Of a stretch of 33,955 nucleotides of DNA, positions 4,087 to 5,958 are shown piece by piece. Position 1 is the stretch's first letter; each line of letters starts with the position of its first letter. Source of the DNA: Fonticula-like sp. SCN 57-25 (taxonomy: Eukaryota). The notes beneath the pieces are model-generated. The model was given only the letters and a program-made list of their open reading frames with translations, searched no databases and had not been told where the DNA came from. The DNA lies in NCBI GenBank assembly GCA_001724245.1, contig MEDX01000094.1:1-33955 (forward strand). The letters are read 5' to 3'. Both the position numbers and the translations under genes were made by a program.

Positions 4087-5958
4087 CTACTCGCCCATGT
4101 TATCGTCGTCTGGTCCGGCCTGATTAAAGTACTGGTCGATATTGACGTCAGCGGCAGTCTGCCCCATGAACGCCGACAGCGACGAGTTCCACGTGTTGGT
4201 CGGCGACTCGAGCATCCCCATTGGCGACGCGAGAATCGGCGATAGCGACTGCTGCCCGGCGGTGCCGTTCCCACCGCTCGCCGCGCCGCCGTGCCCGCCC
4301 GCGCCGCCCGCGAGCATCGCCTGCTGGCTCGCGTGGAACGCCTCGACCTGCAGCGGCGTGAGCTTGAAATCGAGCAATGCCGGCTCGCTGTTGGGCTCGT
4401 TGAAGCTGCTGGCGCGCTGGTGCCCGCCGTGCACGAGCGGCGGCGACAGGCCCTCGATCGAGTCCTCAGAGTGGTAGTCGTGGAAGGACGCCGCGCGCTG
4501 GTGGTGCGACTGCTGCTGCGCCTGAAGGAACCGATTCCGGTACTGGAAGGCGCTCGCGGGGATCTCGGCGCTCGGGCTGAACATGCCGCGGCGCTGCTGA
4601 GGAGAGGGCTGCTGCTGGGCCTGCGCCTGCTGCTGAGCGCGCATCATCATGTCCCAGTTGGGGGCGGCCTGGACGGGGGAGGGGCCGCGGGAGCGAGCGG
4701 GGCGGCGGGGGTCATTCCACGTCGTCGTCTGATTCACATGACTGAAAGTAGGTGTGTCAATAGGAGGGAAAATGGAGGGAAATGGAGGGAAATCAAGAGA
4801 AAATGGAGAGAAAATTGGGCAAAGTAAAGGAAAAACAAGTTAATACAAGCCAAAAAACAAGCCTAATACAGGCCAAAACAAAGGCTATAACAAGTCAAAG
4901 CAAGCAAAAACGAATAATCAAAAGTAGACAATGTGCGCACTCGACATAGTACGGAGCGTTATCGGCCGTAAAGCGGCGCTCCCACCCGGACGGCAGCGGC
5001 CCTGCGCGACGACAGTCAGCGGCAAAAAACAGACACCCAAAAGCGCGTACCATAGTCCTGGTCATTGCCGCCTTCCCCGTCAATGTGCAGCGCCGGGAAC
5101 GACGTGTTCGTCGGCTGCGACATGATCGCGTTCGTCATCGGGTCGAGCCACGTTGTCGTCTGCGTCTGGTGATTGACAAAGTAGAGGCGGCCGTCGGGCG
5201 CCTGCCCGCGCTCCCAGCCCTCGGGCAGCTCCTCGGCGTCATAGAATTCTTCTTGCTGGCGGCGGCCCTTCTTGGTGCCGCCGGTTAGCGACCCGGACGA
5301 CGACTTGCGCTCCACCTTGACGGACACTGACGACGACGAGGGCGACGTATTCGACATGGAGGGGGCGGGTGACTTTTTCTTTGACGAGCCGCCGTGGTCG
5401 ATGCCAGGTGCGCCGCCGGTGAGGACGCTGGGATGGCGGGGTAAGTCAAGGGGATCGAGGCGTGCAAAGATCGTACTGGAGCTGGGACTTTAGCTGCGCG
5501 TTCTCCATATTCATGCGCTCAAGCTCGTGCATCAACGCCGACTTGTGCTCTTGCATTCCGTTGATGAATGCCACGGCTGTGCGACATTCGTGTGAGACGG
5601 ACGTGCCACGCATGGGGGAGGAAGCAGGCAGAACGTACCATGATTGAGAATTTCAATCTTTGTAAACTTTTTGTCGGCGCACGTCGGTACGCACGCCTTG
5701 AGCGCCTGAAAGGCGTCAACGAGCTGTCGCCTCCGCTGCTTTTCGCTCACCGAGTGGCTCTGTCTTACGGTCTCCGAAGCAGCTGGTTGAACAACGAAGA
5801 AAAGGATCGGAGGGTTAGATCACGGGCACCGGCGAGCGATGTCAGCACGTACAGTCTTTAACGTCCTCGCCCTCTGAATCGTCGCTTTCCCCTGGCGTAT
5901 TGCTCTTGTCGCGACGCATGCGGTACCCGCCGGATCCCCCCGCGGACGGCACAAACAT
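4087..5958 (-). CDS. bHLH-leucine zipper (Max/Mlx-like) protein with two WW domains and two HxRxxS motifs; exons 5958-5853, 5782-5639, 5576-5477, 5427-5051, 5001-4941, 4741-4087
   Basis: Spliced product contains [75 protein letters not shown] (bHLH-ZIP), [30 protein letters not shown] (WW1) and [33 protein letters not shown] (WW2). Five GT-AG introns of 70, 62, 49, 49 and 199 nt all give in-frame joins. An alternative in-frame ATG lies 39 nt downstream of 5958. Confidence 0.88.
4762..4900. repeat. Two degenerate short tandem arrays inside the 199-nt intron of the bHLH-WW gene
   Basis: About 10-11 nt units (gaaaatggag/gaaatggagg) at about 4762-4820, followed by about 23 nt units (aaaacaag..taatacaag/gcc) at about 4830-4900. 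Confidence 0.6.

Follow-up and report, generated by a model that had tools for sequence, protein, structure and literature searches.

A predicted bHLH-zipper protein with a WW pair and two HxRxxS motifs, encoded by a six-exon gene of Fonticula-like sp. SCN 57-25

Gene structure

The DNA analyzed here is a stretch of 33,955 nucleotides (nt), referred to as the window, that belongs to contig MEDX01000094.1 of the assembly GCA_001724245.1 (Fonticula-like sp. SCN 57-25). The subject of this work is one gene located on its minus strand at 4087-5958, bounds that are the last base of the stop codon and the first base of the ATG (TAG at 4089-4087 and ATG at 5958-5956). The predicted product starts with a basic helix-loop-helix (bHLH) domain continued by a leucine zipper, followed by a basic KKGRR patch, two WW domains, and a Gln-rich part with two HxRxxS motifs, HQRAAS and HQRASS, and finishes in an acidic and aromatic C-terminus (Table 1). 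An earlier reading of the same DNA, made from its letters alone (the sequence-only reading), had listed all of these features, and each of them could be located. Its claim of one open reading frame (ORF) running across five canonical introns is borne out as well, with six exons that add up to 1443 nt, i.e., 480 codons plus TAG, and a translation free of stop codons. The ATG of exon 1 is the sole start codon found 5' of the bHLH.

All five introns are of the GT..AG type and share the acceptor CAG, while the donor is GTACG in four of them and GTGCG in the fifth. Elsewhere in the window, other genes are likewise predicted to have short GTACG introns (53 and 61 nt) that restore frames rich in GC at the third codon position (GC3), and therefore this appears to be the usual intron type of the organism. 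The model frame has a GC3 of 0.83 (0.65-0.89 for the individual exons) versus 0.89 in the adjoining intron-free gene, which codes for the glycine dehydrogenase GcvP. The GC content of the introns is 0.38-0.61 and that of the gene flanks 0.45-0.47. Intron 5 is ca. 3-4 times longer than the other four (199 versus 49-70 nt), is AT-rich, and contains two short tandem arrays.

The bHLH-zipper and the WW halves are joined at intron 3, and the properties of this joint indicate that they are very probably parts of a single gene. If intron 3 is retained, the bHLH frame continues for 11 codons up to a TGA at 5448-5446, and without its splicing the earliest start for the WW frame is Met141 (ATG at 5357), located 24 codons into exon 4. 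Read as two genes, these frames would be separated by only 88 nt (from the stop at 5446 to the ATG at 5357), whereas the real intergenic gaps on both sides are of ca. 360-370 nt. Besides, the 69 nt that go from the intron 3 acceptor to Met141 have a GC content of 0.68 and a GC3 of 0.78, unlike the flanks. Intron 3 has the same GTACG donor, CAG acceptor and 49-nt length as intron 4, and the a/d heptad positions of the zipper continue across it, L116 being encoded by exon 3 and L119 by exon 4. The pentamer GTACG is found 77 times on both strands of the 33,955 bases (ca. 1 per 880 bases), and by our own estimate the probability that one falls by chance just past the zipper, and in the phase that opens a GC3-rich frame of 125 codons, is ca. 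0.01-0.02, which makes it unlikely. A single gene is thus favored because the stretch at the joint is coding-like, the gap is short, intron 3 resembles intron 4, and the heptads are continuous.

The bHLH-zipper

Five single-exon translations were scanned against Pfam, and two of them exceeded the curated cut-off; the other three gave only subthreshold matches to domains of unknown function (DUF). The HLH domain was detected in exon 2 alone (PF00010, 44.6 bits for a cut-off of 20.7, E 1.2e-11), covering positions 2-44 of the 53 in the profile. The positions of the basic region that read the E-box CACGTG are His5, Glu9 and Arg13, and the residues His45, Glu49 and Arg53 found here match this rule, so that a CACGTG-type specificity is predicted. 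About five zipper heptads directly continue helix 2 of the HLH. Their a/d positions in exon 3 are L81, A84, I88, M91, K95, L98, L102, M105, N109, L112 and L116, and by this positional pattern the hydrophobic a/d run begins at L81 and reaches L119, K95 and N109 occupying "a" positions.

An exhaustive phmmer search with exon 2 against 1.84 billion representatives retrieved three proteins at E <= 0.001 (34.5-35.5 bits), all of them HLH proteins and none with a WW domain, for a query that, with 47 residues, is blind to relatives much below 50% identity. The match with the highest identity (KAI9276088.1, here P0002) is a hypothetical protein of the mucoralean Sporodiniella umbellata. The spliced bHLH-zipper aligns with it without gaps from the basic region to the zipper, up to residue 114, with 34 of 92 positions identical (pairwise E 1e-16), and the alignment crosses the joint between exons 2 and 3 equally without a gap. 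Both proteins have the same short loop. However, P0002 has only 222 residues, and its HLH is the only significant domain besides a weak match to an INO2-type bHLH; it has neither WW domains nor a comparable tail.

Among solved structures, exon 2 matched Twist1 (23.4 bits), Myf5 (21.2 bits), Max (18.5-19.8 bits, E 0.006-0.016) and Myc (18.3-19.5 bits), and exon 3 alone found nothing beyond chance matches to APOBEC3. The label "Max/Mlx-like" proposed by the sequence-only reading is not specifically supported, since the match to Max is no better than those to Twist1 or Myf5. There is a resemblance to the Myc/Max/Mlx network in the His-Glu-Arg of the basic region, the short loop, the zipper continuous with helix 2 and the Asn at an "a" position, but the match to the solved Max and Myc structures is weak (18-20 bits, E 0.006-0.018). 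To our knowledge, the known members of Myc/Max/Mlx do not carry WW domains.

WW domains and C-terminal tail

WW1 was the second domain above the Pfam cut-off (PF00397 in exon 4, 45.8 bits for a cut-off of 26.9, E 6.1e-12). WW2 (residues 245-274) becomes complete only once intron 5 is spliced, and then shows W249 and W271, 22 residues apart, and the closing P274; aligned to WW1, 18 of 34 residues are identical. The two domains are 61 residues apart. WW1 matched 142 solved chains, always through their WW domain, and the best matches were the PPxY-binding WW domains of YAP, NEDD4, Itch, KIBRA and MAGI. The WW domains of YAP gave 41.8, 40.1 and 39.8 bits versus 37.6 for NEDD4, and among tandem constructs compared with exon 4, YAP reached 69.5 bits and Itch 63.2, but 2-4 bits of difference in favor of YAP, over 30 residues, are too few to tell WW families apart. 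Both domains look most like the PPxY-binding group I, and PPxY motifs are their predicted ligands.

The C-terminal half of the protein is predicted to be disordered, which is consistent with the mean predicted local distance difference test score (pLDDT) of 0.47 for the model of the exon 6 ORF in the Atlas. It contains Gln-rich runs at residues ca. 297-312 and 336-340, and the acidic/aromatic end comprises residues 461-480, the last of them being Asp-Asn-Met-Gly-Glu. Between the Gln-rich runs and this end, the two HxRxxS motifs fit the consensus of NDR/LATS kinase substrates, Hx[RK]xx[ST]. When the whole protein was shuffled, two HxRxxS motifs appeared in 0.4% of the cases, and when only residues 276-480 were shuffled, in 0.07%. 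Among the six RxxS/T sites of the protein, these two alone have His at -5. The likeness extends over a longer pattern, HQRAxSFxxxxSE, which is present twice with 8 of 13 positions alike (z = 7.4 versus 2000 shuffles), HQRASS being in the second copy. The sequence between the copies is unalike and just the motif core has been kept, a situation that would fit selection acting on a short linear motif, with the proviso that the copies are not independent events. As described in the available part of PMC2517623, His at -5 is a distinctive preference of the kinase Cbk1, whose optimum is HxRRxS with an aliphatic residue at +1, and Warts/LATS phosphorylate sites of the same motif in Yorkie/YAP.

Search for relatives and for the same architecture

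A word index was searched for proteins longer than the query, starting from exon 6, from exon 4 and from the WW1 region, a scope that leaves aside exon-sized gene calls. Within it, exon 6 gave 2321 candidates with none at E <= 0.001, exon 4 gave 856 with none at E <= 0.01, and the WW1 region gave three with none at E <= 10. Scanning of metagenomes with exon 6 produced 592 pattern matches and no relative, and the scan of prokaryote genome contigs gave 600 matches, none related. In the Atlas, exon 6 found its own record plus look-alikes at chance level only (best 0.80). The scan of metagenomes with exon 4 produced 519 matches, among them eight loci (L001 to L008) that matched WW residues 65-98 only, at 50-52% identity. 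They were dropped as unrelated WW genes because in none of the eight did tblastn with the six exons match an HLH or exon 6. These loci are located in GC-rich contigs (59-63%) and have a single WW with no HLH nearby; two of them, L001 and L004, have identical match tables and may be one sequence recovered from two assemblies.

No bHLH-WW architecture was found in the literature searched (InterPro and UniProt were not queried by architecture), where "HLH and WW" appeared together only in an unrelated work, a screen for effector domains in human proteins. Taken with the phmmer result, the union of an HLH-zipper, a WW pair and two HxRxxS in one chain is a new combination of textbook modules, unmatched in these searches, whose power is limited.

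Genomic context

The neighbor at ca. 360 nt upstream, GcvP, has an N-terminal leader that resembles, by eye, a mitochondrial targeting signal. It is found on four assembly contigs and is alone in its 90%-identity cluster; therefore, there is no close sequenced relative of the organism in that collection. The clusters nearest to GcvP in the Atlas mix fungi and bacteria. Other genes of the window code for CENP-C/Mif2, a P-type ATPase, RNase H2A and a class 3 lipase, and there are in addition an HMG-box protein, a homologue of the dynein regulator NUDE and a two-domain CrcB fluoride exporter (Table 1). The presence of NUDE suggests that the host is opisthokont-like or amorphean, and the neighbors point taken as a whole to an opisthokont-like, perhaps fungal, nuclear genome.

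Rfam and tRNA scans of the window detected one tRNA-Lys only, which overlaps by 36 nt the upstream end of a frame of 574 codons, suggesting that the true start of this frame lies further in. This frame is one of four long ones (479-658 codons) without a Pfam family at E <= 1e-5, an unusually high share for 34 kb that fits a poorly sampled lineage.

The proteins of the window are present in public collections solely as open-frame calls from assemblies, and it therefore appears that the organism is known from assemblies of this kind alone. The sole public run with any part of the locus yielded one contig of 160 nt, identical to the window at 5618-5775, which spans most of exon 2 plus 21 nt of intron 2 and includes no exon joint. 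The run is a wastewater metagenomic library labeled RNA-Seq and flagged as probably DNA. The contig indicates that the organism, or a near-identical strain, was present in that wastewater, and nothing beyond.

Table 1. Features of the gene at 4087-5958 and of its surroundings in the window
Feature	Position	Strand	Description
Exon 1	5853-5958	-	35 codons plus 1 base; Gly/Ser and acidic N-terminus; no Pfam family above cut-off
Intron 1	5783-5852	-	70 nt, GTACGT..CAG, phase 1
Exon 2	5639-5782	-	Basic region, helix 1, short loop and start of helix 2; Pfam HLH
Intron 2	5577-5638	-	62 nt, GTACGT..CAG, phase 1; cuts helix 2
Exon 3	5477-5576	-	Remainder of helix 2 and leucine zipper
Intron 3	5428-5476	-	49 nt, GTACGA..CAG, phase 2; joint between bHLH-zipper and WW halves
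Exon 4	5051-5427	-	Final zipper heptad (V118, L119), Ser-rich linker, KKGRR, WW1; Pfam WW
KKGRR	5259-5273	-	Residues 169-173, in exon 4
WW1	5139-5228	-	Residues 184-213; W188, W210, P213
Intron 4	5002-5050	-	49 nt, GTACGC..CAG, phase 1
Exon 5	4941-5001	-	61 nt; N-terminal half of WW2, starting at L245, with W249 and Y260-Y261
Intron 5	4742-4940	-	199 nt, GTGCGC..CAG, phase 2, 38% GC; splits WW2
Tandem arrays in intron 5	4763-4815, 4831-4899		11-mer x5 and 22-mer x3.1
Exon 6	4087-4741	-	Remaining half of WW2 (ending in P274, base 4708), Gln/Pro-rich region predicted to be disordered, two HxRxxS, acidic/aromatic tail, TAG
HQRAAS	4486-4503	-	Residues 343-348; candidate phospho-Ser348
HQRASS	4405-4422	-	Residues 370-375; candidate phospho-Ser375
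GcvP	6319-9309	-	997 residues, intron-free
HMG-box protein	15178-15798	-	
NUDE homologue	22530-23306	-	Dynein regulator
CrcB	28347-29498	+	Two-domain fluoride exporter
tRNA-Lys (CTT)	12931-13004	-	Overlaps the frame at 11242-12966
Frame without Pfam family	806-2782	+	
Frame without Pfam family	11242-12966	-	574 codons
Frame without Pfam family	16612-18051	+	
Frame without Pfam family	26624-28255	+	

Comparison with known regulators

A precedent for a DNA-binding factor under this type of kinase is found in yeast, where the NDR/LATS kinase Cbk1 controls Ace2 directly, with no co-activator in between (PMC2517623, available part). As in Ace2, it is the DNA-binding factor itself that bears basophilic sites with His at -5. 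However, Ace2 belongs to the zinc-finger proteins and lacks WW domains, and it has HxRRxS sites located in an export signal and docks through [YF]xFP (PMC4428629), whereas the protein described here has a single Arg in each site, no such docking motif, and WW domains that might dock instead. A covalent union of YAP with a bHLH-zipper is also known: the YAP-TFE3 fusion of epithelioid haemangioendothelioma joins a portion of YAP to TFE3, a bHLH-zipper factor, in a single chimeric protein that can work as a transcription factor (PMC8143797, available part). Unlike the gene analyzed here, this fusion is a somatic tumor rearrangement and not a natural gene, and the order is a YAP head followed by a TFE3 body. 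Its WW content differs too from that of our protein. As to the distribution of the pathway, Mats, Hippo and Warts are found well outside animals, and Yorkie and Scalloped first in Corallochytrium, according to the available part of a survey of Hippo components that, within that part, mentions no bHLH-WW protein (PMC7035326).

Proposed function and alternative explanations

With moderate confidence, we consider that the best explanation for the whole set of observations is one gene for a sequence-specific transcription factor of 480 residues with a WW docking module and a regulated tail. That the protein is an E-box-binding factor with a WW docking module seems probable from its residues and similarities. 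The HLH-zipper would dimerize and bind CACGTG-type E-boxes, and the WW pair would dock the PPxY motifs of cofactors or regulators onto the DNA-bound factor. A kinase of the NDR/LATS type might also be docked in this way, or other PPxY proteins; the WW domains of YAP dock LATS. The tail would be an activation region, with its activity, location or stability switched by the phosphorylation of Ser348 and Ser375 through a basophilic kinase. One chain would then combine what animals split between YAP/Yorkie and TEAD. For Ser348 and Ser375 the odds of being regulatory phosphosites look evenly balanced. Because of the His at -5, NDR/LATS is the leading candidate for their kinase, if a tentative one.

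Several points weigh against this explanation. The searches yielded no orthologue in which the architecture or the serines could be seen to be conserved, and the 160-nt contig from the sole public run is uninformative on splicing. The assignment of WW2, which is split by intron 5, relies on its alignment to WW1, while E-box specificity and PPxY binding are inferred from residue patterns and similarity. A short product with only the bHLH, generated by retention of intron 3, is conceivable, because P0002 ends ca. 17 residues past its zipper, where intron 3 lies here. Regarding the motifs, neither of them has the Pro at +2 that mode-1 14-3-3 sites prefer. Both have a single Arg, lacking the second one of the Cbk1 optimum, and a Phe instead of an aliphatic residue at +1 (PMC2517623, available part). 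The docking motif of fungal Cbk1, [YF]xFP, has no match across the 480 residues, although it is not found in all Cbk1 substrates (PMC4428629).

The alternative that survives best accepts the architecture as real and takes HxRxxS as something other than an NDR/LATS target, namely a site for another basophilic kinase (of the PKA, AMPK/Snf1 or CaMK type), a binding motif independent of phosphorylation, or what is left of an internal duplication of 27 residues. The role of the WW domains would in that case lie in general transcription, e.g., in binding the Ser-Pro-rich tail of polymerase II, to which WW domains of the Rsp5 type bind. The single Arg, the Phe at +1 and the missing [YF]xFP speak for this alternative, and the shuffle probability overstates the evidence for the motifs, since their copies are not independent. 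However, the His at -5 has been kept in both copies though the intervening sequence has diverged, the other four RxxS/T sites are devoid of it, and WW plus HxRxxS is the combination that YAP uses to meet the PPxY-bearing LATS. All in all, this alternative seems unlikely.

A second alternative, in which the protein is a true derivative of Yorkie/YAP, is highly improbable. The WW pair, Gln-rich part, HxRxxS and tail would come from an ancestral Yorkie-like gene, and either a bHLH-zipper took the place of its TEAD-binding head or the present arrangement is the ancestral one, with the Hippo/NDR output going straight to E-boxes. This would account for the H-x-R-A-x-S core of both motifs, which resembles the main YAP site, and for the WW scores, as the top single-domain matches of WW1 and the best tandem match are to YAP, if only by the small margin over 30 residues that cannot resolve WW families. 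It would also account for the order of the modules. As in YAP, Yorkie and TAZ, tandem group-I-like WW domains separated by ca. 60 residues precede a Gln-rich stretch, HxRxxS and an acidic, activation-type tail, an arrangement similar to the C-terminal two thirds of YAP (PMC4032125, available part). The sequence-only reading had put forward a Yorkie/YAP-like module with its own DNA-binding domain. Several features speak against membership of that family. YAP, as described in the same part of PMC4032125, has a TEAD-binding region, WW domains, a Ser127-equivalent LATS site before WW1 conserved in all orthologues and a PDZ-binding end. In our protein, which unlike YAP has its own DNA-binding bHLH-zipper, the 41 residues before the basic region are Gly/Ser-rich and acidic, with no TEAD-binding region and no Pfam family above cut-off (no dedicated TEAD-binding profile was run). 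Up to residue 343 the protein is devoid of HxRxx[ST], the two motifs lying C-terminal to WW2 instead of before WW1, and the chain ends in acidic residues instead of a PDZ-binding end. Outside the WW domains no sequence relationship to YAP can be detected, the word-index, metagenome, Atlas and prokaryote contig searches gave no relative of exon 6, and both the neighboring genes and the bHLH closest to ours are a weak indication of fungi. The protein fails most of the tests for membership and is not filed here as a member of the Yorkie family; it would be a functional analogue of YAP plus TEAD and not a demonstrated relative. In our judgment it arose by the shuffling of domains within a single lineage rather than by descent from Yorkie.

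The last alternative, a bHLH-zipper protein of ca. 127 residues ending at the TGA in intron 3 plus a separate WW-WW protein started at Met141, made by two genes or by regulated retention of intron 3, could draw on the early end of P0002 after its zipper, the stop met by read-through and the in-frame Met of exon 4, but is very unlikely given the coding-like spacer of 88 nt, the twin introns 3 and 4, the low chance of a GTACG at that spot and phase, and the uninterrupted heptads.

Implications

The modules of this putative E-box-binding factor are all textbook, and the novelty resides in their union in one chain. In its most ambitious form, it would be a self-contained Hippo-type effector, in which an NDR/LATS kinase, docked on the WW domains via PPxY motifs, phosphorylates Ser348 and Ser375 to switch the E-box factor on or off. 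We regard this form as quite unlikely. If true, a non-animal eukaryote would connect the ancient Mob-NDR/LATS module directly with growth genes by means of a bHLH-zipper and with no need of TEAD, either as an independent invention or as a relic of Yorkie-like WW proteins that predates their role as co-activators.

If the serines are not NDR/LATS sites, the gene would be a lineage-specific domain shuffle, mainly useful as a marker for the lineage. If they are, and if it is the kinase or its regulators that bind to the WW pair, the protein would represent a naturally occurring counterpart of YAP plus TEAD in a single chain. In addition, it would provide, beside Cbk1-Ace2, a second example of an NDR/LATS kinase acting directly on a DNA-binding factor, and would bear on the assembly of the output end of the Hippo pathway.

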